64,000 nucleotides of DNA from Patescibacteria group bacterium (lineage in GTDB: Bacteria > Patescibacteriota > Minisyncoccia > UBA6257 > GWB1-50-10), in assembly GCA_040757555.1 (NCBI GenBank), contig JBFLWN010000007.1, positions 9,404 through 73,403 on the forward strand. The letters run 5' to 3'. Position 1 is the stretch's first letter. Each line of letters begins with the position of its first letter. Below, one piece after another: positions 5,058-40,605 of the stretch. The position numbers were made by a program, and so were the translations under genes. Under the pieces are notes generated by a model. That model did no database searches. It was not told where the DNA came from and was given only the letters and a program-made list of their open reading frames with translations.

Positions 5058-5059
5058 AT

Positions 5060-18508: not shown

Positions 18509-20221
18509 ATGAATCCAGAAACCAGAATTTGCCAAAATTGTAAGCAAAACTTCACCATTGAGAGTGAAGATTTTGATTTTTATAAGAAGATAGACGTACC
18601 TGCACCGACATGGTGCCCATTTTGCCGGAGGGAACGGCTTCTTTCATGGAGAAATGAACGAACATTGTATAAACGCAAATGCGCAGCAACAGGAAAGGAT
18701 ATTGTTTCGATATTTTCTCCGGATGGTCCCATTGTTGCATATGAGAGGGATTATTGGTGGAGTGACGCATGGGATGCGGGACAATTCGGTGTTGAGTATG
18801 ATTTTTCAGTACCTTTTTTTATGCAGTTCAGAAAACTTATGGAGCGTGTTCCGATGCCATCGGTTTTTAATAGCACGTGCGTGAACAGTAATTATTGTAA
18901 TCATGTTGCAAAATCGAAAGATTGTTATTTTGTATTTGCATCATTTCAAAATGAGAATCTTGTATACTCATCTCAGTGTGGTGATGTGAGGGATTCTTCG
19001 GATGTTCTTACTGCAAATAGCTCGGAGTTATGTTATGAAGTCATCAAGGGGATGAAATTGTATCATTGTTTGTTTGCAGAAAATTCGGAAAATTGTAGCG
19101 ACTGCGCATTTATTTATGATTGTAAAGGATGTCAAAATTGTTTTGGATCGACAAATTTGAGAAATAAATCATATTATTTTTTCAATCACCCATGCACAAA
19201 AGAAGAGTATCATGAGCGCATAAAAGAATTTAATCTCGGGAAAAGAGGGGATATTGAAAAAGCTCGCGCATTATTTAACGAAGAGAAGTTGAAGGCGGTG
19301 AGGCGGCCTGCGTTTTTTGTAAATACCACAAATTCAACAGGAGATTATCTCGACCAATGTGAGTCGTGTAAATACTGTTTCGGAATTCGTTTGGGGGGAC
19401 GCAATTGTAAATTTTGTATGAATGGGGGGTATGCGCTCAATGATTCGTATGACACGTTCGGATGCGGCGATAATGGCGAGTTGATTTATGAATCGATAGA
19501 TGCGGGACTCAGTGGGTCTCGGTTCTTTTTTGATGTTGTGGCATATGGGGGAACGAACGTACAATATAGTTTGAATTCCCACGGTTCGGAAAATCTTTTT
19601 GGATGTATCGGTCTTCGTAGTAAACAGTATTGTATTTTAAATAAACAATATACAAAAGAAGAATATGAAATTTTACTTCCGAAGATAAAAGCACATATGA
19701 CCGAAATGCCATATAAAGATAAAAATGGAAGAGTATATGTCTACGGTGAATTTTTTCCAACAGAACTTTCGCCGTTTGCATATAATGAATCACTTGCGTA
19801 TGAGCATTTTCCCTATACAAAGGAAATTACCGAAAAGCGGGGGTATCCATGGCGAGATCTTCCTAAAAATGAATATGCAATCACTCTCCGTACTGGAGAT
19901 ATTCCGGAAAATATAGCGTATGTTTCCGATGAAATTACAAAAGAGGTATTGGAATGCGGACATAAACGCACATGTCTTGATAACTGTGTAGGGGCGTTTC
20001 GTATTACTCCACAAGAATTTTCGATATACAAAAAAATTGGCATTGCGCTTCCGACATTATGCCCAAATTGCAGACACATGGAGCGAATAAAGAGAGCAAA
20101 TCCATTTTTCCTATGGAAGCGGAATTGTACGAAATGTGGAAAGGATATTGAAACTTCATACTCGCCCGAACGACCCGAAGTTGTTTATTGTGAGTCATGT
20201 TATCAACAAGAGGTAGTGTAA
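18509..20221 (+). CDS. Cys-rich multi-zinc-ribbon protein, paralog 1 of 10 (unknown function)
   Basis: Begins MNPETRICQNCKQNF...WCPFCR. Central CxxC/CFGC repeats, LFGCIGL-YCILNKQYTKEEYE, C-terminal LCPNCRH ribbon and tail YCESCYQQEVV; 34 Cys. Confidence 0.8.
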   Translation: MNPETRICQNCKQNFTIESEDFDFYKKIDVPAPTWCPFCRRERLLSWRNERTLYKRKCAATGKDIVSIFSPDGPIVAYERDYWWSDAWDAGQFGVEYDFSVPFFMQFRKLMERVPMPSVFNSTCVNSNYCNHVAKSKDCYFVFASFQNENLVYSSQCGDVRDSSDVLTANSSELCYEVIKGMKLYHCLFAENSENCSDCAFIYDCKGCQNCFGSTNLRNKSYYFFNHPCTKEEYHERIKEFNLGKRGDIEKARALFNEEKLKAVRRPAFFVNTTNSTGDYLDQCESCKYCFGIRLGGRNCKFCMNGGYALNDSYDTFGCGDNGELIYESIDAGLSGSRFFFDVVAYGGTNVQYSLNSHGSENLFGCIGLRSKQYCILNKQYTKEEYEILLPKIKAHMTEMPYKDKNGRVYVYGEFFPTELSPFAYNESLAYEHFPYTKEITEKRGYPWRDLPKNEYAITLRTGDIPENIAYVSDEITKEVLECGHKRTCLDNCVGAFRITPQEFSIYKKIGIALPTLCPNCRHMERIKRANPFFLWKRNCTKCGKDIETSYSPERPEVVYCESCYQQEVV

Positions 20222-20239
20222 AAATTTATAACTTTCAAA

Positions 20240-20782
20240 ATGAAGTGGAAAATAAGTTCAAAACAAAAACAACTTCTTGAAAATCTTTTTCGGGATATAC
20301 CCGCGAAGAAAGTGAGAAAAATTCTTGATGTTGGAAGTGGGCGGACAAGTATTCAGTTTTTGGCGGATAAATTTAAAAGTGTAATTGTGAAGGGACTTGT
20401 ATATCCTGGCGACAAACGTAAATTACAGCCGATTCGAGACTGTGTTTCGCGGAAGAACTATGAAATTATCGAACGTGACTTTAGAGATGTACGTTTTACC
20501 GAAGGGTTTGATATTACACTTGCTCATCTTTTTCTTGGTGAGGCAACAAAATTTGGATCGAATACATTTGGGGGTATGCTCCGAAAGCTTTTTTCACTTA
20601 AAACAAAATATCTTGTGATTGTTGATCTTCTTTTTGATCCTGGGGTTGATTATAATCTGGTATTTCAGATGATTGCGAAAAAAGGAAAACTTCTCAAGGT
20701 AATCTATCAATGGAGAGAAGGTGAGTCGAGGAAAGAATATAAAGGAATAGTTGGGTTTCTTATTAAGTTAAATCATGAATAA
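20240..20782 (+). CDS. Small class I SAM-dependent methyltransferase-like protein
   Basis: Motif I ILDVGSGRTS; 180 aa; embedded between paralogs 1 and 2. Confidence 0.45.
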   Translation: MKWKISSKQKQLLENLFRDIPAKKVRKILDVGSGRTSIQFLADKFKSVIVKGLVYPGDKRKLQPIRDCVSRKNYEIIERDFRDVRFTEGFDITLAHLFLGEATKFGSNTFGGMLRKLFSLKTKYLVIVDLLFDPGVDYNLVFQMIAKKGKLLKVIYQWREGESRKEYKGIVGFLIKLNHE

Positions 20783-22541
20783 GGAACAAAAGATGTGTCA
20801 GAACTGTCATCAAGAATTCTGGATTGAGTCAGAGGATTTTGATTTTTATAAAAAAAACAGTGTGCCGGCACCAACATCTTGTCCCGAGTGCAGAGAAATT
20901 CGGCGCATTGCATTCCGAAATGAGAGATCTTTATATAAACGGAAATGTGATTCATGTGGAAATATAGTGGTATCTCGGGTGTCGCCCGATAAACCATATC
21001 CGATGTATTGTCGCGATTGCTGGTGGTCTGATAAGTGGGATCCGTGTGACCATGGACGCGAGTATGATTTCTCTCGTCCATTTTTTGCGCAATTTAGAGA
21101 TCTTCTTTTTTCTGTTCCGAGCGTTTCTATGTTGAATGGGAATATGGTGAACAGTGATTGGGTGAATCAAGAGACCGATGATAAAAATTGTTACTTAAAT
21201 GTAGGGGGCCACTTTAATGAGGATTCTGCATACAATACATACGAATTTAGAAGCAAGGATTCGTTTGATAATTTTTGGCTTATGTCGGGAGATTTATGTT
21301 ATGAGAATATTACGTGCGATCGGTGTTATAAAACGGCCCTTTCAAAAGATTGTAATGATTGTCGAGAGGTTTTTTTCTCGTTTGACTGTAGAAATTGTTC
21401 GCATTGTTTCGGATGTATAGGACTTCGAAATAAGGAATACTGTCTATGGAATGAACAAAAAACAAAAGAAGAATATGAAGCGTTTATAGATACTCGACCG
21501 CTTTCATCATATAAAAATCTTTTGGAAAATATGAAACGAGCGGAAGGGGTATGGAACGCAATGCCTCGTCGAGCCCTTTATATTCTAAAATCGTCAAATG
21601 TTTCAGGAAATTACATAACCAATTCAAAAAACACACATTATGTATGGGACGGGGATAATATGGAAGATTCAAAATATCACTATATTGTTGCCGGACTTAA
21701 AGATTGTTTTGATGGGTCATCTTTTGGGTGGGCAGAAAAATGTTATGAGTGTTCTTCTTCGGTTGGTCTTTATAACTGTAGAGGAGTTATGTTTTCATTT
21801 GGAGGAGGCGGCGCGGAAGAAAGACACACAACAAATGTTGATCATTCACACACAGTGAATTCCTGTCACGATTGTTTTGGATGTGTGGGACTTCGCAATA
21901 AACAATATTGTATTTTAAATAAACAATATACCAAAGAATCTTACGAAGAATGTAGAAAAAAGATTATTAAACATATGAGTGAGATGCCGTATATAGATGC
22001 AAAAGGAAGAATATACCAGTACGGAGATTCATTTCCTATAGAGTTATCTAACTATGGATATAATGAAACGGTTGCACAGGATTATTATCCACTTACAAAA
22101 GATCAAGCTCTCCAAGAAGGATACTCATGGTGTGATTATGAATCGGAAACGAAATACGAATTTTCTGATTATATAATTCCCGATGATATAAAAGATGTGA
22201 AAGATGATATCCTCGAAAAGGTATTGAAATGTGAGGTTTCGGGAAAACCGTATCGAATTATTCCCATGGAGTTGCAATTCTATCGACGTGTTGGTTTACC
22301 GATTCCGAGAAGGGCACCGTTGCAAAGACATAAAGAACGTATGACGCGTCTTCTCCCTCGAAAACTTTTTACCCGAGAATGTCAGTGCGGGGGGGAGAAA
22401 TCATTAAATGGGGCATATATAAACACAGGGACACATGTGCATGGTAAGGAAGAATGCGACATGAAGATTGAAACCTCATATTCCCCAGATCGCCCGGAAA
22501 TAGTATATTGTGAAGGTTGCTACCAGGCGGAAATTTATTAA
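20775..22541 (+). CDS. Cys-rich multi-zinc-ribbon protein, paralog 2
   Basis: MNKEQKMCQNCHQEF, YCILNKQYTKESYE, tail YCEGCYQAEIY. The C-terminal ribbon is partly degenerate (RRAPLQRH). Confidence 0.8.
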   Translation: MNKEQKMCQNCHQEFWIESEDFDFYKKNSVPAPTSCPECREIRRIAFRNERSLYKRKCDSCGNIVVSRVSPDKPYPMYCRDCWWSDKWDPCDHGREYDFSRPFFAQFRDLLFSVPSVSMLNGNMVNSDWVNQETDDKNCYLNVGGHFNEDSAYNTYEFRSKDSFDNFWLMSGDLCYENITCDRCYKTALSKDCNDCREVFFSFDCRNCSHCFGCIGLRNKEYCLWNEQKTKEEYEAFIDTRPLSSYKNLLENMKRAEGVWNAMPRRALYILKSSNVSGNYITNSKNTHYVWDGDNMEDSKYHYIVAGLKDCFDGSSFGWAEKCYECSSSVGLYNCRGVMFSFGGGGAEERHTTNVDHSHTVNSCHDCFGCVGLRNKQYCILNKQYTKESYEECRKKIIKHMSEMPYIDAKGRIYQYGDSFPIELSNYGYNETVAQDYYPLTKDQALQEGYSWCDYESETKYEFSDYIIPDDIKDVKDDILEKVLKCEVSGKPYRIIPMELQFYRRVGLPIPRRAPLQRHKERMTRLLPRKLFTRECQCGGEKSLNGAYINTGTHVHGKEECDMKIETSYSPDRPEIVYCEGCYQAEIY

Positions 22542-22544
22542 ATT

Positions 22545-24191: not shown

Positions 24192-24228
24192 AGTCCATAA
24201 GGTTATAAGTTTATAAAGTCTTTAAAGT

Positions 24229-26022: not shown

Positions 26023-26123
26023 TTTATAAGGTTTGTAAAGTTGAAAGTTCGTAAAGTATGGTAGGATAAGCACAATTTTTGCCACTGGGCATTTTGTTTC
26101 TAACGGGGTAAAATCAGAGATAT

Positions 26124-28040: not shown

Positions 28041-28041
28041 T

Positions 28042-28076
28042 AAAATCTCCCCGCTTTAAGCGGGGAGATTTTATTG
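28042..28076. terminator. Bidirectional terminator between convergent genes
   Basis: Perfect 13-bp stem aaaatctccccgc/gcggggagatttt with a 5-nt loop, flanked by A/T runs on both sides. Confidence 0.7.
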
Positions 28077-28079
28077 TGA

Positions 28080-28664
28080 TTATTTTGATTTATCGACGCG
28101 TTCAACGTAGTCTCCTGTTTGTGTATTGATGCGAATCACATCTCCTTCGTTTACGAAAAGAGGAACATTTACTTTTGCGCCTGTTTCAATTGTCGCAAGT
28201 TTTGTACCACCTTGTGCGGTATTTCCTTTTATGGCTGGTGGGGCTTCAGTTATCTTAAATTCCATTTTTACCGGAAGCTCGATGTCAATTACCTTTTCGC
28301 CGAATTTAAATGCCTTAATTTCGGTATTTTGTTTTAAATACTGTCCACCACTTCCCAACACATCATCGGGGAGGGTAAATCGATTTTTTGGATTTCCAAC
28401 CTCATGGAACCAATATCCGTCTTTATTATGATAGATGAAGTTTGCTAAAAGTGTTTCGATTTCGATTTCATAAAAATCTTCATTTTGGTGTGCGGTATAG
28501 TCCTGACTTTTCCCTGTAATCAGATTTTTTATCTTTAATTGCACCACAGGCTTCCTCTGTTGCATGCGAATAAACGCATATTCCATCACTTTATATGGAT
28601 TTGGGTCGTCGTTTTTGGTGAATACCGTGCCGACTTTAAGCTCAATATATTCAAGTTTTGACAT
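28080..28664 (-). CDS. efp: Elongation factor P
   Basis: 194 aa; N-terminal KOW-like MSKLEYIELKVGTVF...KPVVQLKIKNLITGKS and two OB domains. Confidence 0.9.
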   Translation of the reverse strand: MSKLEYIELKVGTVFTKNDDPNPYKVMEYAFIRMQQRKPVVQLKIKNLITGKSQDYTAHQNEDFYEIEIETLLANFIYHNKDGYWFHEVGNPKNRFTLPDDVLGSGGQYLKQNTEIKAFKFGEKVIDIELPVKMEFKITEAPPAIKGNTAQGGTKLATIETGAKVNVPLFVNEGDVIRINTQTGDYVERVDKSK

Positions 28665-28742
28665 AGATAATAACTACTAGTTTATAAAAGCGACTGTGGT
28701 ATTGTATTGTAAAAGCTAAGAAATTTCAACATAATTGGCTCG

Positions 28743-29858
28743 ATGAGTGAAAATACAAAAAAGCGGGTATTTGTAGGAATGAGTGGGGGAGTTGATAGCT
28801 CCGTTGCGGCATTTTTATTGAAAAAAGAGGGGTATGATGTGACTGGAGTATATATCAATGGGTTTAATGTAGACGGATGTTCAGAGCGCGATGCAGAGGA
28901 TGCGCGCCGTGTTGCCGATCATCTTGGAATTCCATTTTATGTGATTGATGCTCGCGAAGACTATTTTGAATATGTAGTGCAATACATGATCAAAGGATAT
29001 AAAAAGGGACTCACGCCAAATCCTGATGTGATGTGCAATAAGGAAATAAAATTTGGGATTTTTTTAGATAAGGCATTAAAACTTGGAGCGGATTACATCG
29101 CGACTGGTCACTATGTTTGTTTTGAAAAAAAATCAAAACTTTTTGAGGCAAAAGATAAAAATAAAGATCAATCATATTTTTTGTGGACACTCACACAAAA
29201 ACAATTAAAGCATTGTTTATTTCCGGTAGGGGAATACACAAAACCGGAAATTCGGGAGATCGCAAAAAAAGCAAAATTACCGACCGCAGAAAAAAAAGAC
29301 TCACAAGGAATTTGTTTTTTGGGAAAAGTAAAACTCCCCGAATTTTTGAAAGCATATATAAAACCAAAAAGAGGGGATGTGTTGGATACCGAAGGAAATA
29401 AAATTGGAGAACACGAAGGAGTGCAATTTTATACTATTGGACAGAGGCATCTCAATATAATTCAAAAATCAAATCTTAAATCTCAAAAAGGAATAATAGA
29501 TAGGAAGCCATATTATGTTGCGGAAAAAGATGTTAAGAGAAATATACTTATTGCCGCACAAGGAGATACTCATCCCGCATTATTTAAAAAAGAAATTGAG
29601 TTAACCGATGTTCATTTTATTAATACGGAAATCAAATCTCTAATTCGTGCGAATAAGCGAATGGATGTGCTTGTGCGAGTGAGGTATAGGCAACCACTTT
29701 TTAAGGCGACACTTGTATATGATGAAAAGAAATGGAAAGTTTTGTTCAACGACCCGCAAAAATTTGTTGCACCTGGGCAATCCGCGGTGTTTTATGGTAT
29801 AGGTCTCGATGAGAGTGGAAACCATGAGATGCTAGGCGGTGGGGTGATTTTGGAATAA
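28743..29858 (+). CDS. mnmA: tRNA-specific 2-thiouridylase MnmA
   Basis: PP-loop VFVGMSGGVDSSVAA and the conserved Cys of MnmA. Confidence 0.9.
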   Translation: MSENTKKRVFVGMSGGVDSSVAAFLLKKEGYDVTGVYINGFNVDGCSERDAEDARRVADHLGIPFYVIDAREDYFEYVVQYMIKGYKKGLTPNPDVMCNKEIKFGIFLDKALKLGADYIATGHYVCFEKKSKLFEAKDKNKDQSYFLWTLTQKQLKHCLFPVGEYTKPEIREIAKKAKLPTAEKKDSQGICFLGKVKLPEFLKAYIKPKRGDVLDTEGNKIGEHEGVQFYTIGQRHLNIIQKSNLKSQKGIIDRKPYYVAEKDVKRNILIAAQGDTHPALFKKEIELTDVHFINTEIKSLIRANKRMDVLVRVRYRQPLFKATLVYDEKKWKVLFNDPQKFVAPGQSAVFYGIGLDESGNHEMLGGGVILE

Positions 29859-29887
29859 TATTAAACACATAGTGTTGGGTATCTAGT

Positions 29888-31597
29888 ATGGCTGAACCAG
29901 AAATAAAAATTTGCCAAAACTGTAAGCAAGACTTCACCATAGAGAGTGAAGATTTGAGTTTTTATACAAAAATAGGTGTGCCCTCGCCAAAATTATGTCC
30001 ACTATGCCGCGCTCAACGGAGACTTGCATTCCGTAATGAGCGCGTTTTTTATAAGCGGAAATGCGATCGATGCGATAAGAATGTGGTTTCGATGTATAGT
30101 CCCAATAAACCATACCGAGTATGGTGTTACGATTGTTGGTTTTCCGAAGATTGGGATCCTCTTATATACGGGAGAAATTATGATCCAACCAGATCTTTTC
30201 TTGAACAATTTGAGGAGCTTTGGAAAGAGGTTCCAAAAGTCGCGCTTATTCATATGCGAAGCGTGAACTCAGAATATTTAAATATTTCGGCCGATAATAA
30301 GAATTGTTATATGATTGTTGAGTCGTCAAACAATGAGGGATGCGCGCATTGTTATTGGATACAGGAATGCAAAGATTGTGTTGATGTTTCCTTTGCATCA
30401 AAAACTGAACTTTCATATGAAAGCGATGATTGTTATGACTCGTATAAACTGTTTTACAGCAAAGGATGTCATGATTGTAGAGAAAGTTATTTTCTTTTTG
30501 ATTGTAAAGATTGTTCTGATTGTATTGGATGTATGAATTTAAGAAGTAAAAAGTACCATGTGTTTAACCAGCCGCTCACCAAGGAACAATATGAGGAGTT
30601 TTTAAAGACCGCAAGACTTAATACACACGAAGGGGTTGAAGGTGTGAGAAACAAATTTGAGTCGTTTATGAAGACTCAGCCGAAAAAATATGCAGAGATA
30701 TATAACGCGCCGGGATCAAGTGGGGGATATATGAAAAATAGTAAAAACTGCAAACTCTGCTTCCACTGTTATGATTCAGAGGATTCAAAATATGGGGTGC
30801 ACGTGTGGCGAAATGCAAAGGATTGTATGGATGTGGATACCGCGGGAAGAAATGCTGAACGTTTATATAATTCAATGAATGCGGGAATTGATGTTTCAAA
30901 CTACGTTTGTTCAAATCTTTGTTGGACGTGTAGTTTTATGCAGTATTGTTATTATTGTTTTAATTCAAATTTTTGTTTTGGTTCAGTGGGACTTAGAAAA
31001 AAAGAATATTGTATTTTGAACAAAAAATATACAAAAGAAAAGTTCGAGGAATTGCAAAAACAGATTATTGAAGATATGAAAAAAAGAGGGGAATATGGAG
31101 AGTTTTTTCCCGCTCATATGAGTACATTTGGATACAACGAAACGGCAGCACAAGAACAGTTTTCCCTTACAAAAGAAGCAGCAGAAAAACTAGGATTTAA
31201 ATGGGAAGAATATCCACGGGGGACCTATGGGAAAGAGAATATAAAATGGGAGAGTATTTCGGGTACTATAGATCCCTTGACTGCTATATTTGCATGTGTC
31301 TTGTGTTCTAAAAATTATCGCATTATTCCCGCTGAGTTATCGTTTTATGAAAGACTAAACATACCATTTCCACGGCTATGCCCCGATTGTCGACATATGC
31401 GTCGAATTAAGAACCGTGGGCCAAATAGGTTATGGAAACGTACATGTTCGTGTGGAAATAAAAACACGATATATAAAAATAACGCAGTCCATTTTCATGG
31501 AGAGAGTCAATGTCAGAATGAATTTGAAACAAATTTTCTCCCGGAAAACAATGAAGTATTATATTGTGAACAGTGTTATAACCAAGAAGTGGTTTAG
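29888..31597 (+). CDS. Cys-rich multi-zinc-ribbon protein, paralog 5 (divergent subtype)
   Basis: MAEPEIKICQNCKQDF, YCILNKKYTKEKFE, tail YCEQCYNQEVV. Confidence 0.8.
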   Translation: MAEPEIKICQNCKQDFTIESEDLSFYTKIGVPSPKLCPLCRAQRRLAFRNERVFYKRKCDRCDKNVVSMYSPNKPYRVWCYDCWFSEDWDPLIYGRNYDPTRSFLEQFEELWKEVPKVALIHMRSVNSEYLNISADNKNCYMIVESSNNEGCAHCYWIQECKDCVDVSFASKTELSYESDDCYDSYKLFYSKGCHDCRESYFLFDCKDCSDCIGCMNLRSKKYHVFNQPLTKEQYEEFLKTARLNTHEGVEGVRNKFESFMKTQPKKYAEIYNAPGSSGGYMKNSKNCKLCFHCYDSEDSKYGVHVWRNAKDCMDVDTAGRNAERLYNSMNAGIDVSNYVCSNLCWTCSFMQYCYYCFNSNFCFGSVGLRKKEYCILNKKYTKEKFEELQKQIIEDMKKRGEYGEFFPAHMSTFGYNETAAQEQFSLTKEAAEKLGFKWEEYPRGTYGKENIKWESISGTIDPLTAIFACVLCSKNYRIIPAELSFYERLNIPFPRLCPDCRHMRRIKNRGPNRLWKRTCSCGNKNTIYKNNAVHFHGESQCQNEFETNFLPENNEVLYCEQCYNQEVV

Positions 31598-31608
31598 TAA
31601 TTAAAAAG

Positions 31609-33336
31609 ATGAATCAAGAAAATAAAATTTGCCAAAACTGTAAGCAAAACTTCATTATTGAACTTGAGGATTTCGATTTCTACAAAAAAATGGAGGTGCC
31701 GCCTCCGACGTGGTGTCCGGAGTGTAGAAATATGCGCCGCGCACTTTGGAGAAATGAGCTTACACTCTATAAACGACGTTGTAATGTTCCGGGGCATTCG
31801 GAGGAGATAATTTCGATGTATGTGCCGACATCCCCATTAACTGTATATGACAATGAATACTGGTGGAGTGATGCATGGGATCCACTTTCATATGGACGAG
31901 ATTTTGATTTCTCTCGCCCGTTTTTTGAACAACTAAAGGAGCTTATTTATCGCGTACCTGTTGCGGCACGAGCAGATGCAATGGGGGTACAATCTCAGTT
32001 TTGTAATTTTTCTCTCGGGTTTAAAAATTGTTATTTTTCTTCGGCGGGGTGGGCAAATGAGGAGTGTATTTACAGCAATCGTATCGATGATTGTAAAGAT
32101 TCTGGTGATCTTTTTGTTTGTCATACAAATAGTGCGAGCTATGAGAATGTAGATTGTACGGAGTCGTTTAAATTATTTTATAGTACACAATGTAAAAGTT
32201 GCACCGAATCATATTTTCTTTTCGATTGCAGAAATTGCTCCAACTGTATTGGTTGCACGAATTTGCGGAACAAATCATATTTTATTTTTAATAAACCGTA
32301 TTCGAAAGAAGAATATATGCAGAAACTAAAAGATTTTTCATTTGATTCGTATTCGTTTATTCAAAATTTTAAAAAAGAATTTGATGAAAAAAAGAAAAAT
32401 GCAATTCGTCGTTACGCACAAGTCTATAATTGCACCAATGTTATTGGGGATAATGTAGCAGATTCCAGGAATTGTTATCAATGTTTTGATTTGACGGGTG
32501 GTGCAGAAAACGTGAAATACACCCACTGGGGCATTAATGGGTTGAAGGATACATATGATACTGGTCCAGGAACGGGCGGCCATTCCGAACTTATGTATGA
32601 GGGGATAAGTACTGCAAAAAATAATTCACGGTATCGATTTAACGCACTTGTGTGGGAATCTATCGATGTTGAATATAACTGGAATTGCTACAACTGCAGA
32701 AATATTTTTGGATGTTCGGGGTTGCGGAATAAACAATATTGTATTTTAAATCGGCAATATACAAAAGAGGAGTACGAAGCATTTGTGTTAAAAATAAAAG
32801 AACAAATGAATGCAGTTCCGTATATAGATACAAAAGGGAGAATTTATTTATATGGTGAGTTTATGCCCTCTGATTTTGCACCGTTTGCCTTTAATGAAAG
32901 TGTTGCATTTGATTATTGGCCACTAGATGAAGAAAGGGCTATAAATTATGGGTTTAGGTGGGTATCAGTGGATAAGAAACAATATGTGCCAACCATGGAC
33001 GTAGAAAAGATTCCCGACGCAATACATGATGTGTCTGGATCAATTTGTAACGAGATTATTACATGTGAACACAGGGGTGCGTGCTCACATAAATGTCCTG
33101 GCGCATTTCGTGTTGTTCCACAAGAATTAGAATTTTATAAAAAATATGGAATTCCGGTACCGCATCTTTGTTTTAATTGTCGTCATAGCCAAAGACTCAA
33201 AGAGCGGAATCCAATGAAATTATGGCATCGTTTATGTATGAAATCTGGGTGCACCAATGAATTTGAAACCTCCTATACTCCCGAACGACCGGAGATTGTG
33301 TATTGTGAGAGTTGTTACCAAAAAGAAGTCTTTTAA
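31609..33336 (+). CDS. Cys-rich multi-zinc-ribbon protein, paralog 6
   Basis: MNQENKICQNCKQNF, YCILNRQYTKEEYE, tail YCESCYQKEVF. Confidence 0.8.
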   Translation: MNQENKICQNCKQNFIIELEDFDFYKKMEVPPPTWCPECRNMRRALWRNELTLYKRRCNVPGHSEEIISMYVPTSPLTVYDNEYWWSDAWDPLSYGRDFDFSRPFFEQLKELIYRVPVAARADAMGVQSQFCNFSLGFKNCYFSSAGWANEECIYSNRIDDCKDSGDLFVCHTNSASYENVDCTESFKLFYSTQCKSCTESYFLFDCRNCSNCIGCTNLRNKSYFIFNKPYSKEEYMQKLKDFSFDSYSFIQNFKKEFDEKKKNAIRRYAQVYNCTNVIGDNVADSRNCYQCFDLTGGAENVKYTHWGINGLKDTYDTGPGTGGHSELMYEGISTAKNNSRYRFNALVWESIDVEYNWNCYNCRNIFGCSGLRNKQYCILNRQYTKEEYEAFVLKIKEQMNAVPYIDTKGRIYLYGEFMPSDFAPFAFNESVAFDYWPLDEERAINYGFRWVSVDKKQYVPTMDVEKIPDAIHDVSGSICNEIITCEHRGACSHKCPGAFRVVPQELEFYKKYGIPVPHLCFNCRHSQRLKERNPMKLWHRLCMKSGCTNEFETSYTPERPEIVYCESCYQKEVF

Positions 33337-33338
33337 TT

Positions 33339-35081: not shown

Positions 35082-35121
35082 GGGAATGTTTAACGCGTAA
35101 TACAGGGTATAATTATCCAAT

Positions 35122-35439
35122 ATGGAAAAAATAGAATCGGAAAATTTAGGAATAGAAAAGTTTTCTTCTTTTGTAGAGGAATATGAAAATTTAAAGAAGA
35201 GACTCTATGAAATAGATGCAGAAGTTGTGGAAAGGGGCGATGAGGAAGAGATGCTTGATTGGGGTCGTTGGGGAGGTGGTAGAATTGTTAAGGCTGAGTA
35301 TCTGAAAGAGATAGAAGGAGCTATAGAAAATTATAAAAAAGGAATTGATAAAGACTATAACCTCGGGGTTTTAGAGACGTATATTAAATTGGTAAAAGAA
35401 ATGATGCCAAAATGTGAAGAATATAGTAAAAAAAATTAA
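35122..35439 (+). CDS. Hypothetical acidic coiled-coil protein
   Basis: 105-aa ORF between paralogs 7 and 8; no recognisable motif. Confidence 0.35.
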   Translation: MEKIESENLGIEKFSSFVEEYENLKKRLYEIDAEVVERGDEEEMLDWGRWGGGRIVKAEYLKEIEGAIENYKKGIDKDYNLGVLETYIKLVKEMMPKCEEYSKKN

Positions 35440-35443
35440 GATT

Positions 35444-37105
35444 GTGAATCAAGAAACAAAAACATGTCAGAATTGTAAAATCGAGTTCGTCATTGAACCT
35501 GAGGATTTTGATTTTTACAAAAAAATGGGAGTACCGACGCCGAAATTATGTCCCGACTGTAGATTTATCAGAAGAATGTTGTGGAGAAACGAGAGGTCTC
35601 TGTATACACGAAAATGTGATTTGTGTGGGAATTCTATGATAAGCACATATCCGGAATTAACTCCTTACACCGTTTATTGCTGGGATTGCTATCACTTGGA
35701 CAAATGGGATCCAAAAATATATGCAATGGAATATGATTTTTCCCGGTCTTTTTTTGATCAATTTGGTGAATTAATGAAGAAAGTTCCGAAGTCAAATATT
35801 TACTCCGATAATCTTGGAATAAATAGTGAATATATAAATTTTGCGGGATTTAACAAAGACTGTTATCTCATTTTTAACAGCGGACACAATGAAAACTCGA
35901 TGTATTCGCGCGGAATTGCAGAATCGAGAGAAACTGTAGATGGATATTTTTGTAACAATGTTGAAAAAACATATGAAGGAGTGAATGTAAATAAATCAAA
36001 TGGAGTAGTATATGGCCAAAATTCTACGAATGATATTGATTCGTGGTTTATGCTCAATACATCCGGATGTCAAAATTGTTTTGGATGTGTAAATGTGCGT
36101 AATGGTTCCTGTCAGTTTTTTAATCAACAACTTTCCAAAGAGGAATATCAGAAAAGAGTAGGAGAGGTGAGGGGAAGTTATAAGGAAACACAGAAAATGA
36201 TAGAAGATTTCAAGCGTCACGCATCTTTATTTCCCATGCGGGAGAACACAAACATAAAGACGGTTGATTCAACCGGGAATTATCTTTTTGAGTGTAAGAA
36301 TGTAAGGGGTTGTTTTGAGTCGTTTGACTGTGAGGATTGCAAATACTGTCATTTCTTGAAGCATACAAAAGATACCTATGACGCACTTGGATTTGGATAC
36401 GGGTCGGAGCTTTTACTCAATACGGTTGGTGTGGGAAGGGAATCGCAAAGGGTTATTGGCTCAATTCAGGTTTCAAGCTCTCAAAATATTTTTTATTGCG
36501 CTTCTGTGAGGACATCAAACGAGTGTTTCGGATGTGAGGGTTTGAAAAACGGAGAATATTCAATTTTAAATAAACAGTATTCCCCAGAAGAATACAAAAA
36601 AATAAAAAAGCACATTATTGACGAACTTATGAAAAACGGGGAGTATGGACTTTTCTTCCCCCCAGAACTTTCTCCTTTCGCCTATAATGAAACGATTGCG
36701 CAAGAAAATTTTCCACTTACAAAAGAAGATGCGACAAACAGGGGATATGGGTGGAGAGATGAAATTCAAAAAACCACAGGAAAAGAAACATTATTGCCGG
36801 AAAATCTTCCCGATCAGATTAATGACGTTTCCGATTCTGTTACGAATGAAATATTAAAATGCGTGGAATGTTCAAGAAATTATAAAATCATTCCTCCCGA
36901 ACTGTCTTTTTACAGAAAGATGCAAATTTCGGTGCCACGTAAATGTTTTAATTGCAGACACGCTGATCGCGTGTGGCGCCGGGGTCCAATGAAATTATTT
37001 GATCGCGCCTGTACGCACTGTGGGAAGAATATAAAAACTCCTCTTTCGGATGATAGGGCAAAAATTGTTTATTGTGTTGAATGTTATCAGGCGGAGGTGG
37101 TATAA
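35444..37105 (+). CDS. Cys-rich multi-zinc-ribbon protein, paralog 8 (divergent subtype; probable GTG start)
   Basis: VNQETKTCQNCKIEF, EYSILNKQYSPEEYKK, tail YCVECYQAEVV. The ORF-track start 35414 overlaps the upstream ORF, so the GTG at 35444 is preferred. Confidence 0.7.
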   Translation: MNQETKTCQNCKIEFVIEPEDFDFYKKMGVPTPKLCPDCRFIRRMLWRNERSLYTRKCDLCGNSMISTYPELTPYTVYCWDCYHLDKWDPKIYAMEYDFSRSFFDQFGELMKKVPKSNIYSDNLGINSEYINFAGFNKDCYLIFNSGHNENSMYSRGIAESRETVDGYFCNNVEKTYEGVNVNKSNGVVYGQNSTNDIDSWFMLNTSGCQNCFGCVNVRNGSCQFFNQQLSKEEYQKRVGEVRGSYKETQKMIEDFKRHASLFPMRENTNIKTVDSTGNYLFECKNVRGCFESFDCEDCKYCHFLKHTKDTYDALGFGYGSELLLNTVGVGRESQRVIGSIQVSSSQNIFYCASVRTSNECFGCEGLKNGEYSILNKQYSPEEYKKIKKHIIDELMKNGEYGLFFPPELSPFAYNETIAQENFPLTKEDATNRGYGWRDEIQKTTGKETLLPENLPDQINDVSDSVTNEILKCVECSRNYKIIPPELSFYRKMQISVPRKCFNCRHADRVWRRGPMKLFDRACTHCGKNIKTPLSDDRAKIVYCVECYQAEVV

Positions 37106-37132
37106 AAAGGTATATAGTAGTAAGTATTACGT

Positions 37133-38866
37133 ATGGTGAATTCAAAAACCCCACAATTTGATAAGGCACTTGATGAAATTTTGAATTCGCTTGTTCCCCA
37201 TGAGCGGACGTGTCGAAAATGCAATGTAGTATTCAATATAATCGAAGAAGATATAAACTTCTTCCGTATATTTCGAGTACCTCCTCCAATGTTGTGCTCG
37301 CTTTGTAGGAGAAAACGCCGGTTTGGGCATTTGATGCGCGTTCCGAAATTTTTTAAGAAAAAATGTAGTGCGCCAGGGCACGAAGAAGAGGTTATAACTG
37401 TTTTTCCACCATCTTCCCCACACAGAATATACGACTTTTCCTTTTATCAATCGGATGAATGGGATGGTGCTTCTTATGGAAAGGAGTATGATGTTTCGCA
37501 ACCATTTTTTTCTCAGTTTCAGAAATTGTTCTTTGATGTTCCACACGTTTCGTTGGAACGGGATCCGATGGGAGTGGGAGTTGAGTATACACTTGGGGGG
37601 CGTGGAGGAAAGAATAATTACTATGCATCTGCACCGTTTGGGAGTGAAGAGTGTTCTTATGTGAATGATGCACGTTTTTCAAAAAATATTATTGATTCAA
37701 ATGCCATGTTCAATTCAGAATTTTGCTATGAATCAGTGAATACTTCATATAGTAATAAGGGGATATATCTTATGAATTGTTCGCATTGCATTGATTCGGC
37801 ATTCTTATATGATTGCAAAAATTGTTCCGATTGTTTTCTTTCTTCAAATCTTCGGAATAAATCATATGTATTTCAGAATGAACAACTTACAAAAGAAGAT
37901 TATCGTCGTAAAATAACCGAGATTGATCTGGGGGACAGGGACGTATTTAGAAAGATGAAAGGGGAGTTTATATTTGTCGCGGAGAAGGCATTACGGAGAG
38001 CTACACAAACAGTTAATTGTGTTGATACTCTGGGAGATAGCGATATTGAATGTAAGGATTGTTATTTTGTGTTTCGTGCTCAGAATTCCGAACATTGTAG
38101 ATATTCAGAAAATCTTTTGAAAGCAAAAGATCTTTATGGTGTTACCAATAGTATTGGAGAACATATTTATGAAGGAGTGACATGTATTCCTAGTAACATT
38201 TGGTTTTCCCTTTTTGCTCGTGATTCCACATTCGTAGAATATTGTGTGGAAGTTCGCAACTGTAATTATTGTTTTGGATGTGTGAGCCTCAAAAATAAGC
38301 GATTTCATATTTTTAATAAACCATATACAGAAGAAGAATATTGGAAAAAAGTAGATGATATAAAAACTGCAATGCTCTCGAGAGAAGAATATGGTGAGTT
38401 TTTCGATCTTTCTCTCGGACTTATGCCGTATCAATCATCGAATGGAGAATATTATTTTCCAGTTTCAGAAGAAGAGGCCAAAGCACAAAATATCCCCATT
38501 TATCCAGAGCCAGAGAGTCATCTTCCTAATAGTATTCGTATTCTTGATCCACAAACAGAAGTTCCTAAAAATATTAAAGATGTGACGGATGATATTTTAA
38601 AACATGCAGTTTGTTGTGAGGTGTCTGGGAAAGCGTTTCGTATTACACCATCCGAACTTCAATTTTATCGACGTCTTAATATTCCTATTCCATTAAAACA
38701 TCCGTGGCAAAGAATGATTGAGCGGAGGGATTGGGAATTTCCTTTTATGCTATATGACTTTGTGTGTCCACAATGTGGTGAAAAATCTTTTTCGGTATAT
38801 TCGCCCGAAGAGCAGAAAAAGTTGAAAATTTTCTGCGAAAAATGTTATTTGAGGGAAGTGGTATAA
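37133..38866 (+). CDS. Cys-rich multi-zinc-ribbon protein, paralog 9 (most divergent, N-terminal extension)
   Basis: CRKCNVVFNIIEEDINFFRIFRVPPPMLCSLCRRKRR, RFHIFNKPYTEEEY, tail FCEKCYLREVV. Confidence 0.75.
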   Translation: MVNSKTPQFDKALDEILNSLVPHERTCRKCNVVFNIIEEDINFFRIFRVPPPMLCSLCRRKRRFGHLMRVPKFFKKKCSAPGHEEEVITVFPPSSPHRIYDFSFYQSDEWDGASYGKEYDVSQPFFSQFQKLFFDVPHVSLERDPMGVGVEYTLGGRGGKNNYYASAPFGSEECSYVNDARFSKNIIDSNAMFNSEFCYESVNTSYSNKGIYLMNCSHCIDSAFLYDCKNCSDCFLSSNLRNKSYVFQNEQLTKEDYRRKITEIDLGDRDVFRKMKGEFIFVAEKALRRATQTVNCVDTLGDSDIECKDCYFVFRAQNSEHCRYSENLLKAKDLYGVTNSIGEHIYEGVTCIPSNIWFSLFARDSTFVEYCVEVRNCNYCFGCVSLKNKRFHIFNKPYTEEEYWKKVDDIKTAMLSREEYGEFFDLSLGLMPYQSSNGEYYFPVSEEEAKAQNIPIYPEPESHLPNSIRILDPQTEVPKNIKDVTDDILKHAVCCEVSGKAFRITPSELQFYRRLNIPIPLKHPWQRMIERRDWEFPFMLYDFVCPQCGEKSFSVYSPEEQKKLKIFCEKCYLREVV

Positions 38867-38883
38867 AGAATTTTAAATTTTAA

Positions 38884-40605
38884 ATGAAACAAGAAAAAAG
38901 AAATTGCCAAAATTGCAAAGGGGAATTCATCGTTGAAGATGAAGATTTTCAATTCTATAAAAAAATAGAAGTACCACCCCCAACATTCTGTCCTGACTGT
39001 AGAATACAAAGACGGCTTTCCTATAAAAATGAGCGAACACTTTATCGACGAACTTGTGATAAATGTAAAAAGAATATCATTTCCATTTTTCCTACAGACG
39101 TAAAATTTCCTGTATATTGCCCACAGTGCTGGTATGCGGATGATTGGGGGGCAGAAGAATATGGGATGGAATATGATTCTTCAAAGACTTTTTTTGTCCA
39201 ATTTAAGGAACTTATGGATCGCGTGCCCCGTATGAGTGTGTATATCGATCTTGGGCGTACGATAAATAGCGAGTATTTGCACCTTACGGGACCCGCGAAG
39301 GATTGTTATCTTGTTTTTCTTGCAGACCAGAATGAGAATTGTATGTATTCATATTCAATTTTTTACAATAAAGATCTTGTGGATGCGACTAAGGTTTCAA
39401 GTACTACGCGCGGGTATGAGCTCATTAATTGTGAAAATTGTTATCAAACAACATATTCAAGTGATTGCAAAAATTGTGTCGATACGGCGTTTTCAAAAAA
39501 CTGTAATAATTGTACAAACTGTTTTGGGTGTGTGAATCTTTCAAATAAAAAATTCTGTTTTTTTAATGAACAACTCAGTGAAGCAGAATATAAGGTGCGT
39601 ACAAGTGAATTTTTTTCAGGGTCGTTTGTAAAAACAATAGAAGCGGAAAAAAGAAGCGCTGAATTTTTTAAAGATTTTCCGGTGAAATATATGCACGGAA
39701 ACATGAATACAAATGTTTCGGGGGATTATATTTTTCAGAGTAAAAATGTGAAAAATTCATTTCAGGTAGTGGGAGGAACAGATAATAAATATTGTCAGAC
39801 GCTCAATATGGAACCAACCTCGGATTCATATGATTATTCCGATTGGGGAAATAATGCAACTTTAATGTACGATTCAGTAAATTGTGGAGAATATATTACA
39901 AGAACAAAGTTTACTTATGGTGCGTGGCTTGGGGGAGATTATGAATATTGCGATGTCTGTATTGATAGTCACAACCTTTTTGGATGTATCATGTTGAAGA
40001 AAAAGAAATATTGCATATTGAACAGACAATATACAAAAGAAGAATATGAAAAACTGCGCGCAGAGATTATAAAAGAGATGAATGAACGCCCATATAAAGA
40101 TGTAAAAGGGAGAATATATTCTTATGGTGAATTTTTCCCATCAGAATTATCACCCTACCCGTATAAAGATACTGCCGCATTTGAATATTTCCCGCTTACT
40201 GATAATGAAATAAAAAATAATGGATATGTATGGCGAGAGGAGGATGTGCGTGAATATATGCCGACCATGAAATGGTCGGACCTTCCCGATAATATCAATG
40301 ATGTATCGGATGATATTCTTAAGGAGATTATTGAGTGCGCTCATACAAAAGATGGGTGCAATGATCGATGTGCAACGGCATTTCGTATTACCCCGCAAGA
40401 GCTCCAGTTTTATAAAATAATGAAACTTCCGCTTCCGCGATTTTGTTATAATTGTCGGCACTATCGAAGATTTCGTGCGATGAATCCGTGGAAACTATGG
40501 AAAAGAAATTGTGCAAAATGTGGAGCTCAAATTGAGACCTCATATTCACCAGAGAGGGGAGAGACGATATACTGCGAACCTTGCTATCAGAAGGAAGTGA
40601 TATAA
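38884..40605 (+). CDS. Cys-rich multi-zinc-ribbon protein, paralog 10
   Basis: MKQEKRNCQNCKGEF, YCILNRQYTKEEYE, tail YCEPCYQKEVI. Confidence 0.8.
   Translation: MKQEKRNCQNCKGEFIVEDEDFQFYKKIEVPPPTFCPDCRIQRRLSYKNERTLYRRTCDKCKKNIISIFPTDVKFPVYCPQCWYADDWGAEEYGMEYDSSKTFFVQFKELMDRVPRMSVYIDLGRTINSEYLHLTGPAKDCYLVFLADQNENCMYSYSIFYNKDLVDATKVSSTTRGYELINCENCYQTTYSSDCKNCVDTAFSKNCNNCTNCFGCVNLSNKKFCFFNEQLSEAEYKVRTSEFFSGSFVKTIEAEKRSAEFFKDFPVKYMHGNMNTNVSGDYIFQSKNVKNSFQVVGGTDNKYCQTLNMEPTSDSYDYSDWGNNATLMYDSVNCGEYITRTKFTYGAWLGGDYEYCDVCIDSHNLFGCIMLKKKKYCILNRQYTKEEYEKLRAEIIKEMNERPYKDVKGRIYSYGEFFPSELSPYPYKDTAAFEYFPLTDNEIKNNGYVWREEDVREYMPTMKWSDLPDNINDVSDDILKEIIECAHTKDGCNDRCATAFRITPQELQFYKIMKLPLPRFCYNCRHYRRFRAMNPWKLWKRNCAKCGAQIETSYSPERGETIYCEPCYQKEVI

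Follow-up and report, generated by a model that had tools for sequence, protein, structure and literature searches.

What would one genome do with ten divergent versions of a large cysteine-rich protein? The question is raised by a 64,000-nucleotide stretch, called here the window, of a Patescibacteria MAG that represents a tiny, episymbiont-like bacterium, in which the first-pass annotation had recognized ten same-strand paralogs of 548-597 aa. Ten plus-strand ORFs of those lengths are present, intact with 0 internal stops, and they sum to 17,220 nt. They are numbered P1 to P10 in window order, and L0xx designates loci sampled from other genomes.

Ten family copies and the genes between them

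The copies and most of the genes lying among them are as follows.

18509-20221, plus strand: family copy P1, 570 aa; ortholog 93% identical in L092
20240-20782, plus strand: 180-aa ORF bearing an ILDVGSGRT motif like that of class I methyltransferases; splits the array; missing from L092
20775-22541, plus strand: family copy P2, 588 aa; ortholog 61% identical in L001; missing from L092
22545-24191, plus strand: family copy P3, 548 aa; orthologs at 56-64% in L042, L081, L006, and L004
24229-26022, plus strand: family copy P4, 597 aa; 100% identical to NCBI AB1333_03805; best ortholog 68%
28080-28664, minus strand: efp, interrupting the array
28743-29858: mnmA, interrupting the array
29888-31597, plus strand: family copy P5, 569 aa, 40 Cys; orthologs at 89% (L094), 75%, and 73%, and about 40 more loci at 53-65%
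31609-33336, plus strand: family copy P6, 575 aa
33339-35081, plus strand: family copy P7, 580 aa
35122-35439, plus strand: 105-aa acidic ORF between P7 and P8
35444-37105, plus strand: family copy P8, 553 aa counted from GTG at 35444
37133-38866, plus strand: family copy P9, 577 aa, more divergent than any other copy, in its own deep subfamily; ortholog 94% identical in L092
38884-40605, plus strand: family copy P10, 573 aa; missing from L092

Five non-family ORFs, namely the 180-aa ORF, a 638-aa VirD4-like ATPase described below, efp, mnmA, and the 105-aa ORF, divide the copies into the blocks P1-P4 and P5-P10. The head-to-tail arrangement with 3-40 nt spacers first proposed therefore holds inside the blocks, where spacers are 2-40 nt, but not as a single run. 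Pfam scans give nothing significant for the 180-aa ORF and no family for the 105-aa ORF. P8 most probably starts with GTG at position 35444, not at the mechanical ORF start of 35414, because the former yields MNQETKTCQNC as in the other copies.

Cysteines number 27-40 per copy, and our count of 34 in P1 agrees with the earlier one. Divergence is as high as had been claimed, with pairwise protein identity of 29-49% and 47 invariant columns in the ten-copy alignment, in which all the motifs listed at first pass are present. At the DNA level the copies resemble each other in stretches of 80-250 nt at just 60-78% identity, and the sole stretch reaching 95% is the 43-nt block YCILNKQYTKEEYE. Because of this, the copies are neither assembly-collapsed repeats of one gene, a possibility that had been raised at first pass, nor recent duplicates.

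Protein architecture and relatives of the family

The family proteins have a Z-S-S-Z architecture, produced by two internal duplications. The Z module at each end is a basic double zinc ribbon, running from CxxC...CPxCR through an Arg-rich linker to CxxC-x17-CxxC, and S1 and S2 are homologous Cys-rich middle modules, acidic, and the least conserved part between copies. By hhalign the N module matches the C module with probability 99.4% (E = 1.6e-21), and S1 matches S2 with probability 99.8% (E = 3.5e-29). The AlphaFold2 model of P4 has a pLDDT of 81.9 and a pTM of 0.83, and predicts the S modules to be beta-solenoid-like, which we hold as tentative because S1 is modeled at a pLDDT of just 55-65. 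The beta-solenoid proteins among the closest known systems are curli CsgA, left-handed beta-helix enzymes, insect and plant ice-binding proteins, and pentapeptide-repeat DNA mimics. As was noted at first pass, the proteins are soluble, with neither signal peptide nor TM helix; 19-residue windows peak at a Kyte-Doolittle mean of 1.44, none of them TM-like.

Comparing 57 sequences, 8 Cys are invariant in 57/57 (C8, C11, C36, C39, C545, C570, C588, and C591), and S1 holds a nearly invariant C207-x2-C210-x2-C213-x2-C216 cluster. Cys makes up 4.7-7.0% of the proteins, with many positions not conserved. Compared pairwise, the ten copies are 45-47% identical in the Z modules and 61% in a core block, against 30-35% in the solenoid modules and 20% in the helix between them. 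The linkers between ribbons are mostly net +4 to +7, in contrast to a net-negative protein middle; whole-protein pI is 5.7-7.3 and net charge mostly negative. The C-terminus, ...YCExCYQxEVV, is nearly invariant.

A division into two sub-types, as initially put forward, is too simple, with ribbon and loop features forming a mosaic over the copies. The second N-terminal ribbon is intact, as a literal CxxC-x17-CxxC, in P2, P5, P7, P8, and P10. P2, P3, and P9 have lost the first C-terminal ribbon, and P1, P8, and P10 have a C-terminal ribbon with the literal pattern. The PYxDxKGRxY loop is missing in P3, P5, P8, and P9, exactly the four that had been singled out as most divergent.

Zinc binding by the family is putative, judging from its motifs. 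The two end modules have the pattern of the small treble-clef proteins zf_Tbcl (PF13451), zf_Tbcl_2 (PF23477), and TIGR04272, and small CxxC-x17-CxxC proteins of Methanosarcina mazei bind zinc by ICP-MS (PMC12704099). Family members score below the curated cut-offs, at best 25.6 versus 27 bits, 18.5 versus 24, and 22.4 versus 36. Furthermore, the known proteins are tiny and stand-alone, whereas in the family the ribbons come in pairs, one pair at each end through duplication, with about 400 aa of unrelated sequence between the ends. Across that central region Pfam and NCBIfam find nothing, and PDB has no relative by sequence or by fold. The family is uncurated and uncovered by Pfam/NCBIfam, in keeping with the first report of no characterized domain. 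It is nonetheless very large, comprising 5,226 clusters at 50% identity, with named matches all from Patescibacteria of the Parcubacteria/Paceibacteria (Minisyncoccia) type. A role in host interaction or defense had been suggested. PADLOC gives 0 matches to the family and IMG/VR viral contigs give one partial match only, which speaks against defense; host interaction is a possible, putative role.

The conserved operon and its ATPases

The strongest functional clue available, overlooked in the first-pass annotation, is a conserved operon with two VirD4/TraD-like ATPases. Its order is DUF8128 membrane protein, small TM protein, ATPase A, CutA, 57-aa TM peptide, n family genes, and ATPase B, and in the window its parts other than the family genes are these.

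14331..15749, plus strand: membrane protein, operon gene 1, with an N-terminal hydrophobic segment; DUF8128 by its orthologs
15756..16286, plus strand: 176-aa single-pass membrane protein with one hydrophobic segment; 96% identical in L092
16283..17752, plus strand: ATPase A, a soluble VirD4/TraD/HerA-like P-loop ATPase of 489 aa; Pfam TrwB_AAD_bind, DUF87, T4SS-DNA_transf, and TraG-D_C
17809..18114, plus strand: CutA1-like protein, 101 aa; the neighbor-cluster representative matches Pfam CutA1
18230..18403, plus strand: 57-aa membrane peptide with a hydrophobic N-terminus; 100% identical in L092
26124..28040, plus strand: ATPase B, a second VirD4/TraD-like ATPase of 638 aa, carrying a CxxC-x17-CxxC ribbon at the C-terminus as well as a disordered tail; 98% identical in L092
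28037..28077, no strand: bidirectional intrinsic-terminator-like hairpin closing the first operon; its 19-bp stem lies between the stop codons of ATPase B and efp, which converge here

Our own hmmscan finds no Pfam family in the first protein; its orthologs in L085-L089 and L091, 49-82% identical and at the same position, carry the precomputed assignment PF26449. In L085-L092 the gene of the 176-aa protein again separates the DUF8128 gene from ATPase A, the CutA1-like gene lies directly 3' of ATPase A in L085-L088, L091, and L092, and a 57-58-aa gene occupies the equivalent place in L091, L089, and L090. The best 120 database matches of ATPase A are 76-92% identical and are of Paceibacteria type wherever named. 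ATPase B, whose ribbon is of the kind found in the family proteins, matches TrwB_AAD_bind and DUF87, and also zf_Tbcl_2 at 53.6 bits, which is over the cut-off, and TIGR04272 at 55.4 bits.

The linkage extends well beyond the window. Family-anchored loci contain 49 VirD4-like ATPase genes spread over 33 of 82, at a median of 94 nt from a family gene and on the same strand in 47/49 cases. When loci are instead sampled around P5-type genes, 12/30 have ATPases, and all four loci fetched by way of ATPase A homologs have family genes less than 2 kb downstream. The order of ATPase A, family genes, and ATPase B recurs with n = 1, 2, 4, 4, 4, 5, and 6. About 60% of sampled loci have no ATPase within 10 kb, and therefore many family arrays lie elsewhere. 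The neighborhood of the operon also includes secDF, efp, mnmA, comEC, and ribosomal genes.

The ATPases resemble the VirD4/TraD/TrwB coupling proteins in matching TrwB_AAD_bind, T4SS-DNA_transf, and TraG-D_C, in weakly matching TrwB 1e9r, and in having candidate clients encoded beside them, as relaxases are. They differ in that neither has a TM segment, both score far under the NCBIfam family cut-offs, two distinct paralogs are present, and the candidate clients are unlike relaxases or any known effector. VirB4 has no match among the subset of window ORFs scanned, and CPR VirD4 homologs are almost never near virB4 (5,713 homologs in 2,918 genomes, only 148 of them near it; bioRxiv 10.1101/2025.01.22.634366).

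Subtype age, turnover, and possible function

All ten copies are closer to orthologs elsewhere than to their in-genome paralogs (for example, 64% versus 35% for P3 and 65% versus 39% for P5); hence the diversification did not happen in this genome, contrary to the ten-fold diversification first envisaged, and the copies are ancient subtypes. Between lineages whose SecD and SecF share 55-66% identity, family orthologs persist at 56-68%. Against L092, dN/dS is 0.036 for P1 and 0.06-0.095 for P9, with flanking genes at 0.013-0.155, and each copy kept is under strong purifying selection. Copy content is another matter, and, as to the question of array size and order between strains left by the first pass, the number and identity of family genes change quickly between related genomes. 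Relatives with flanking proteins 84-98% identical have 1-2 copies where the window has 4 and 6. L092, with flanking proteins mostly 92-98% identical and DNA about 88%, has at the same sites only P1 and a P9 bearing a GAA-to-TAA nonsense mutation; L094 has the P5 ortholog and one non-orthologous copy, and the first copy of L091 is a subtype missing from the window.

The explanation we favor, tentatively and at somewhat short of an even chance, is that an ATPase machine has the family proteins as its interchangeable, zinc-dependent clients, be they adaptors or cargo. The conserved basic ribbon ends would attach the proteins to one shared partner (the ATPases or nucleic acid), and the variable solenoid faces would give each subtype its own target; the proteins could be intracellular adaptors or the exported cargo itself. 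As a best guess, this is favored by the basic conserved ends around an acidic variable middle, the same-strand ATPase linkage, the ancient constrained subtypes, and the fast content turnover. Against it, the putative family-ATPase link is one of gene context, and small syntenic genomes can keep adjacency without shared function. ATPase A, at 76-98%, is far more conserved than the family, as would suit a core housekeeping function for which the family may be dispensable, and neither ATPase has the TM domain typical of canonical coupling proteins or scores near the NCBIfam cut-offs.

Should the proteins be exported effectors, which we consider unlikely, the VirD4-like ATPases would recognize conserved ends such as the C-terminus and pass the proteins, unfolded, into an envelope channel (a T4SS or a pore built on DUF8128). 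Once in the host cytoplasm the proteins would bind zinc and act there, and differences in repertoire between strains would mirror host range. Coupling-protein genes, as is generally known, commonly adjoin the substrate gene in conjugative systems, CPR VirD4 homologs have been suggested as possibly exapted for other functions, and T4SS genes are reported in Paceibacterota, Nomurabacteria, and Parcubacteria (bioRxiv 10.1101/2025.01.22.634366). The lack of a signal peptide, the conserved termini, and repertoires unlike between near relatives would suit export, but effector repertoires usually evolve faster than SecD/SecF-like identity and a dN/dS of 0.04-0.09, multi-zinc proteins are awkward secretion substrates, TM anchors are missing from the ATPases, and the subset of window ORFs scanned has no VirB4 match. 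Doubtful too is that these are autonomous nucleic-acid-binding scaffolds, probably for RNA, with ribbon modules clamping two sites, the solenoid as a rigid spacer, and the ATPase adjacency inherited synteny only. The Arg/Lys-rich linker in each Z module accords with this, as do the name "Zn ribbon nucleic-acid-binding protein" given to one member by JGI and the frequency of translation genes nearby (efp, mnmA, infA-rpsM-rpoA, cysS). So does an NYN (PIN-like nuclease) domain fused to a family member, a real fusion found in two assemblies. It is confined to one lineage, however, and the whole proteins are mostly negative. Moreover, the tight same-strand bracketing by two ATPases recurs in distant genomes with rearranged order and is therefore poorly explained by synteny alone, and a range of 1 to 10 copies between close relatives is unexpected of a housekeeping RNA factor.

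In an anti-phage or inter-genomic conflict system, the ATPases would be motors and the family proteins diversified sensors. Such a role would account for hypervariable copy content inside conserved flanks, for an island of a Dam-like methylase and an AAA ATPase adjoining the array in L094, and for weak PADLOC matches of the ATPases to the mad8 and HerA models. It is very improbable given the PADLOC and IMG/VR results for the family, the absence of a nuclease, toxin, or other effector domain, and purifying selection with no diversifying signal; the family and ATPase A are also close to universal and highly conserved in the clade, whereas defense systems are patchy. Storage or buffering of zinc or another metal, with CutA as a metal-related partner, is scarcely credible, even with so many Cys per protein, a CutA1 gene within the operon, and zinc binding shown for the ribbon type (PMC12704099). 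These are large, ordered proteins in which non-Cys motifs are conserved and many Cys positions are not, and buffering would not need distinct ancient subtypes. Metallothioneins, moreover, have a Cys content far above that of the family.

To return to interchangeable clients of an ATPase machine, the 1-2 copies in close relatives against ten here point to a strain-variable client set of an ATP-driven machine. Among the strain-variable multigene families of reduced symbionts and parasites, effector repertoires and the VirB2 pilin arrays of Bartonella and Anaplasma differ from the family, in which subtypes are ancient and evolve at housekeeping-like rates, a surface-exposure signal is absent, and antigenic or phase variation is not evident. 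What they have in common with it is tandem arrays whose content varies between close relatives inside conserved flanks, and tandem VirB2 variation has been discussed for CPR (bioRxiv 10.1101/2025.01.22.634366).

The zinc-ribbon array and the plan of its proteins

The window carries ten intact genes on the + strand for proteins of 548-597 aa, as the first-pass annotation had proposed, and these align over their full length with 47 invariant columns. They had been described as a tandem array; the common strand stands, but the uninterrupted run does not, as five other ORFs split it. The family takes up 17 kb of the 64-kb window, which is a large coding share for a small genome. The features of this region are listed in window coordinates, with P1-P10 denoting the ten copies.

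14331-15749, DUF8128 membrane protein
16283-17752, ATPase A, VirD4/TraD-like, 489 aa
18230-18403, membrane peptide of 57 aa, between cutA and P1
18509-40605, + strand, ten family genes in blocks P1-P4 and P5-P10
Within the array, ORF of 180 aa
26124-28040, within the array, ATPase B, VirD4/TraD-like, 638 aa
Within the array, opposite strand, efp
28743-29858, within the array, mnmA
Within the array, ORF of 105 aa

The start of P8 is most likely the GTG at 35444. BLASTP identity among the ten copies is 29-49%, and their pI is 5.7-7.3. All of the motifs listed in the first-pass annotation are found, namely an N-terminal ribbon CQNC...FYKK...CPxCR, the WSDxWD and YDFSxPFF stretches, a CFGCxGLRNKxYCILNKQYTKEEYE block, YGEFFPxELSPxxYNE...FPLTK, ELxFY...CPNCRH, and an end with CExCYxxEV[VIAYF]. 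Its count of 34 Cys in P1 is likewise correct, within a range of 27-40 across the ten copies, and no 19-residue window in any of the ten is sufficiently hydrophobic to be a TM helix, in agreement with the reported absence. What had been called two sub-types is instead a mosaic in which single zinc sites and loops are present or absent.

Profile-profile comparison by hhalign finds 2 internal duplications, one of residues 10-87 with 497-594 (probability 99.4%, E = 1.6e-21), and one of residues 136-240 with 284-395 (probability 99.8%, E = 3.5e-29). The end modules, designated Z, each have 2 zinc ribbons and, between them, an Arg/Lys-rich linker with a net charge mostly of +4 to +7, and the middle of the protein has a negative net charge. 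In the first N-terminal ribbon, C8, C11, C36, and C39 are invariant in 57/57 sequences, with F15, D21, F24, and Y25 conserved; in the last C-terminal ribbon, four Cys are likewise invariant in 57/57, and the remaining 2 ribbons are complete in some paralogs only. The central Cys-rich modules, S1 and S2, are predicted to be solenoid-like, and S1 ends in a C-x2-C-x2-C-x2-C cluster that is nearly invariant. Conservation across the ten copies is highest in the ends and the core block, at 45-61% identity, and lowest in the solenoid modules, at 30-35%, and the helix between them, at 20%. The structure model places 2 hairpins and a helix at the first N-terminal ribbon, and its solenoid part is predicted with modest confidence.

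The ends have some likeness to known zinc fingers. Like zf_Tbcl (PF13451), the family has 2 CxxC pairs around an aromatic-acidic stretch in a treble-clef-like ribbon, but it stays below the 24-bit gathering cut-off, with best scores of 18.1 for a full-length copy and 18.5 for an N-terminal fragment, and matches at E < 0.1 are obtained for 24/57 members. The literal CxxC-x17-CxxC of zf_Tbcl_2 (PF23477) and TIGR04272 is present in the C-terminal ribbon of P1, P8, and P10 (the spacing there is x18 in P3 and x19 in P9) and in the second N-terminal ribbon of P2, P5, P7, P8, and P10, but the best scores are 25.6 bits (P10) against a cut-off of 27 for the former and 22.4 bits against 36 for the latter. 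A ribbon of this type binds zinc in small Methanosarcina proteins (PMC12704099), and the Cys patterns lead us to infer binding of several zinc ions by the family proteins.

Age of the subtypes and turnover of array content

For all ten copies, proteins of other genomes outscore the best in-genome paralog. Orthologs and best in-genome paralogs stand at 64% versus 35% identity for P3, 68% versus 49% for P4, and 82% versus 33% for P9; for P5, the ortholog is at 65% in the family-anchored loci and 89% in a close relative, versus 39%. True family orthologs are 56-65% identical in genomes whose SecD/SecF are 55-66% identical to those of the window. Measured against L092, a close relative, P1 has a dN/dS of 0.036 and P9 one of 0.06-0.095, inside the range of 0.013-0.155 for flanking housekeeping genes. 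The first-pass annotation had read the array as a ten-fold diversification, but closer orthologs elsewhere and low dN/dS indicate ten ancient subtypes under purifying selection with no recent local diversification, and diversifying selection within the genome is rejected on the same evidence. DNA between copies is 60-78% identical over 80-250 nt, reaching 95% in one 43-nt block only, and this divergence rules out both assembly collapse and recent duplication. Ten open frames together with low dN/dS rule out a pseudogene array.

Variation of array size between strains, which the first-pass annotation had raised, is seen in near relatives that differ in their family genes. L092 has DNA ~88% identical to the window and the same gene order, with protein identities of 98% for ATPases A and B, 97% for EF-P, and 93% for SecA. 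It has only the P1 ortholog in the interval from cutA to ATPase B and only the P9 ortholog from mnmA to comEC, so that P2-P4, P5-P8, and P10 are missing. Furthermore, its P9 ortholog has a GAA-to-TAA nonsense mutation at 11201-11203, inside the conserved YTEEEY block (near window 38333), which splits it into 400 + 164 aa, and the same disrupted gene is in an independent Logan assembly. In L094 (EF-P 94%, ComEC 84%), the same interval has P5 and a family gene only 40% identical to any window copy, and in L091 (FtsA, FtsZ, and SecD 87-88%), the array opens with a subtype missing from the window, for which the best match is P4 at 55%. Across 82 + 30 sampled loci, there are 1 to 10 family copies per ~20 kb. 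Because the copies are so divergent, these content differences have to come from deletion or recombinational import, not from duplication after the split. Shifting content between near-identical genomes, combined with strong constraint on each copy, is an unusual pattern and one that marks a functional repertoire.

The gene mnmA is 72-80% identical to its L092 counterpart (8741-9964) and 76% to that of L094 (5366-6697), with lengths of 371 aa in the window versus 407 and 443 aa, amid neighboring genes that are 94-98% identical, which points to breakpoints of recombination at the border of the second array. In L094, the efp-mnmA interval (900-5400) is occupied by an inserted island that encodes an AAA-type ATPase, small ORFs, and a DNA methylase of the Dam-like kind with a PLRYPGGK motif, and that is not in the window. 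The neighborhood seems prone to gene flux in general, as a hotspot. At the other end of the array, the last ~40 nt of P9 and P10 with the spacer that follows are 80% identical (38828-38883 versus 40567-40622; repeat family D13), and the L092 spacer 3' of P9 aligns to the window spacer 3' of P10. These shared ends fit a loss or gain of P10 through recombination between them.

Neighboring ATPases, the conserved operon, and candidate functions

The commonest neighbor of the family is a VirD4/TraD/HerA-like P-loop ATPase, with 49 genes in 33 of the 82 family-anchored loci, at a median distance of 94 nt from a family gene and on the same strand in 47/49 cases. There are 2 types, A of ~490 aa and B of 600-800 aa, the latter sometimes having a C-terminal CxxC-x17-CxxC ribbon above the Pfam/NCBIfam cut-offs, as in the window, where it scores 53.6 bits with zf_Tbcl_2 and 55.4 bits with TIGR04272. 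When sampling starts from ATPase A homologs instead, 4/4 loci have family genes no more than 2 kb downstream. Gene order is conserved and runs secD, secF, a sigma-4/HARE-HTH gene, the DUF8128 membrane protein, a small TM protein, ATPase A, cutA, a 57-aa TM peptide, and then the family genes. In L092, that peptide is unchanged (100% identity) amid flanking genes at 93-98%, and L091, L089, and L090 have it in the corresponding place. DUF8128 (PF26449) is assigned by precomputed matches on orthologs; direct hmmscan of the window protein gives no family, even at E ≤ 1.

The recurring unit is ATPase A, n family genes, and ATPase B, with n = 1 in L092, 2 in L109, 4 in the window, L089, and L107, 5 in L102, and 6 in L117, and a strong bidirectional terminator is found 3' of the window ATPase B. 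In one lineage, the operon of ATPase A, 4 family genes, and ATPase B includes a 799-aa fusion of an N-terminal, nuclease-like NYN domain (PF01936) to a full family member (L089 10001-12400; L090 3146-5545). The flanking ATPases have a Walker A motif (GKSGVGKS, GKTGTGKT), but unlike canonical coupling proteins A and B are without a hydrophobic segment or TM anchor, and with NCBIfam they score 46-57 bits, where the cut-offs are 250-647. ATPase A is 76-92% identical in its best 120 database matches, from many Parcubacteria lineages, and its conservation is far above that of SecD, SecF, and the DUF8128 partner. Such conservation suggests a core machine that may be essential. In a 2025 preprint, 5,713 VirD4 homologs are counted for 2,918 CPR genomes, of which only 148 are near virB4; it was unable to assign them to the T4SS and raised the possibility that they were exapted for other functions (bioRxiv 10.1101/2025.01.22.634366). 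The bracketing of the family by 2 such ATPases offers a concrete candidate partner for these orphans.

The reading we prefer, tentatively and at somewhat less than even chances, is that the family proteins may be interchangeable clients, adaptors or cargo, of a machine of the DUF8128 protein and ATPases A and B. They resemble the substrates and adaptors of type IV coupling proteins in that their genes adjoin those of VirD4/TraD-type ATPases. The family proteins would work together with the ATPases, the conserved basic ends serving as the constant part for docking and the variable acidic solenoids as the part for specificity. Synteny is generally high in Paceibacteria-type genomes, which weakens the link, and ~60% of the sampled loci are without an ATPase within 10 kb. 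As a rival reading, the proteins would be autonomous nucleic-acid-binding scaffolds, with the ATPase adjacency being synteny only; we consider that unlikely. Should the ATPase link be no more than synteny, the family would still be among the larger uncharacterized bacterial protein architectures.

If the proteins are clients of the ATPases, they might as a special case be exported effectors, which we doubt to a similar degree; the coupling-protein resemblance speaks for it, and against it VirB4 has no match among the part of the window ORFs that was scanned. A somewhat more speculative version has the operon, the DUF8128 protein, and 2 small TM proteins forming an undescribed ATP-driven Paceibacteria delivery pathway, its cargo being strain-variable zinc-ribbon/solenoid proteins injected into bacterial or archaeal hosts. 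Both the effector class and this use of coupling-protein ATPases would then be new, with host range encoded by copy content. Few uncultivated bacteria are as widespread as the Paceibacteria (Parcubacteria), and their host interaction is mostly obscure. Strain-variable copy content might also recall a conflict or defense system, but PADLOC has no family match, with P3, P4, and P9 blank at E ≤ 0.01, and we find this improbable. Metallothionein-like metal stores are very rich in Cys and poor in aromatic residues. The family is Cys-rich, but at only 4.7-7.0% and with many conserved aromatic residues, which makes metal buffering scarcely credible.

Database coverage, taxonomic range, and other features of the window

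The full-length copies were searched with Pfam, NCBIfam, PHROGs, and PADLOC, and four sub-regions and the 57 alignment members with Pfam as well. The first-pass annotation could assign no characterized domain, and that holds; Pfam and NCBIfam give sub-threshold zinc-finger matches of the 2 ends only, to zf_Tbcl, zf_Tbcl_2, and TIGR04272, and the central ~400 aa have no Pfam/NCBIfam match in full-length copies, sub-regions, or the 57 aligned members. A PDB sequence profile search gives the family no match, and neither the family nor DUF8128 was found described in the literature. PHROGs gives a single weak match, phrog_15341 (E = 4e-4), traced by tblastn to a Campylobacter phage (xxC)n-repeat protein, and we judge the similarity to be compositional. 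That 187-aa protein, at 2540-3100 of phage vB_CjeM_WX1 (L084), is almost wholly xxC triplet repeats (NCKNCVNCFNCVDCSNC...), weakly like the family stretch DCxNCxNCFGC.

The family exceeds 6,179 clusters at 90% identity (E ≤ 1e-5) and has 5,226 clusters at 50% identity (E ≤ 1e-3), 2,297 of these at E ≤ 1e-30, with at least 588 loci in species-representative genomes. Thus there are thousands of sequence clusters, yet no Pfam/NCBIfam model, solved structure, or paper was found. The building blocks are of known kinds, being zinc ribbons, a solenoid-like repeat, and coupling-protein-like ATPases, but no curated family, solved structure, or paper that we found covers the whole protein, its Z-S-S-Z plan, or the operon, in which the number of ancient subtypes varies between strains. 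Both the family and the system are in our view new, with a candidate function only.

Named sources are all Patescibacteria of the Parcubacteria/Paceibacteria (Minisyncoccia) type, nearly all annotated as "hypothetical", and P4 is identical to a protein from an NCBI "Patescibacteria group bacterium" MAG. A Burkholderiales-labelled MAG contig (L066) has five family members and both ATPases, and a 2-kb Gammaproteobacteria-labelled one (L016) has one family gene. With a GC of 30-35% and the Paceibacteria operon, these are probably mis-binned Patescibacteria DNA, and we reject a Proteobacterial occurrence. Viral origin is rejected, there being one partial IMG/VR match, as is a mobile element or plasmid, the surroundings being ftsA, ftsZ, ddl, secDF, secA, and 16S.

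Beyond the array, ComEC is split in 2 genes, 40673-42124 for the Competence/DUF4131 membrane part and 42134-43048 for a metallo-beta-lactamase-fold protein, followed by RmuC; the split is also in L088 and L092. The 16S rRNA match at 62055-63916 is 1,862 nt versus 1,533 positions in the bacterial model, indicating an insertion of ~330 nt in the gene. Insertions in rRNA genes are often reported for CPR.
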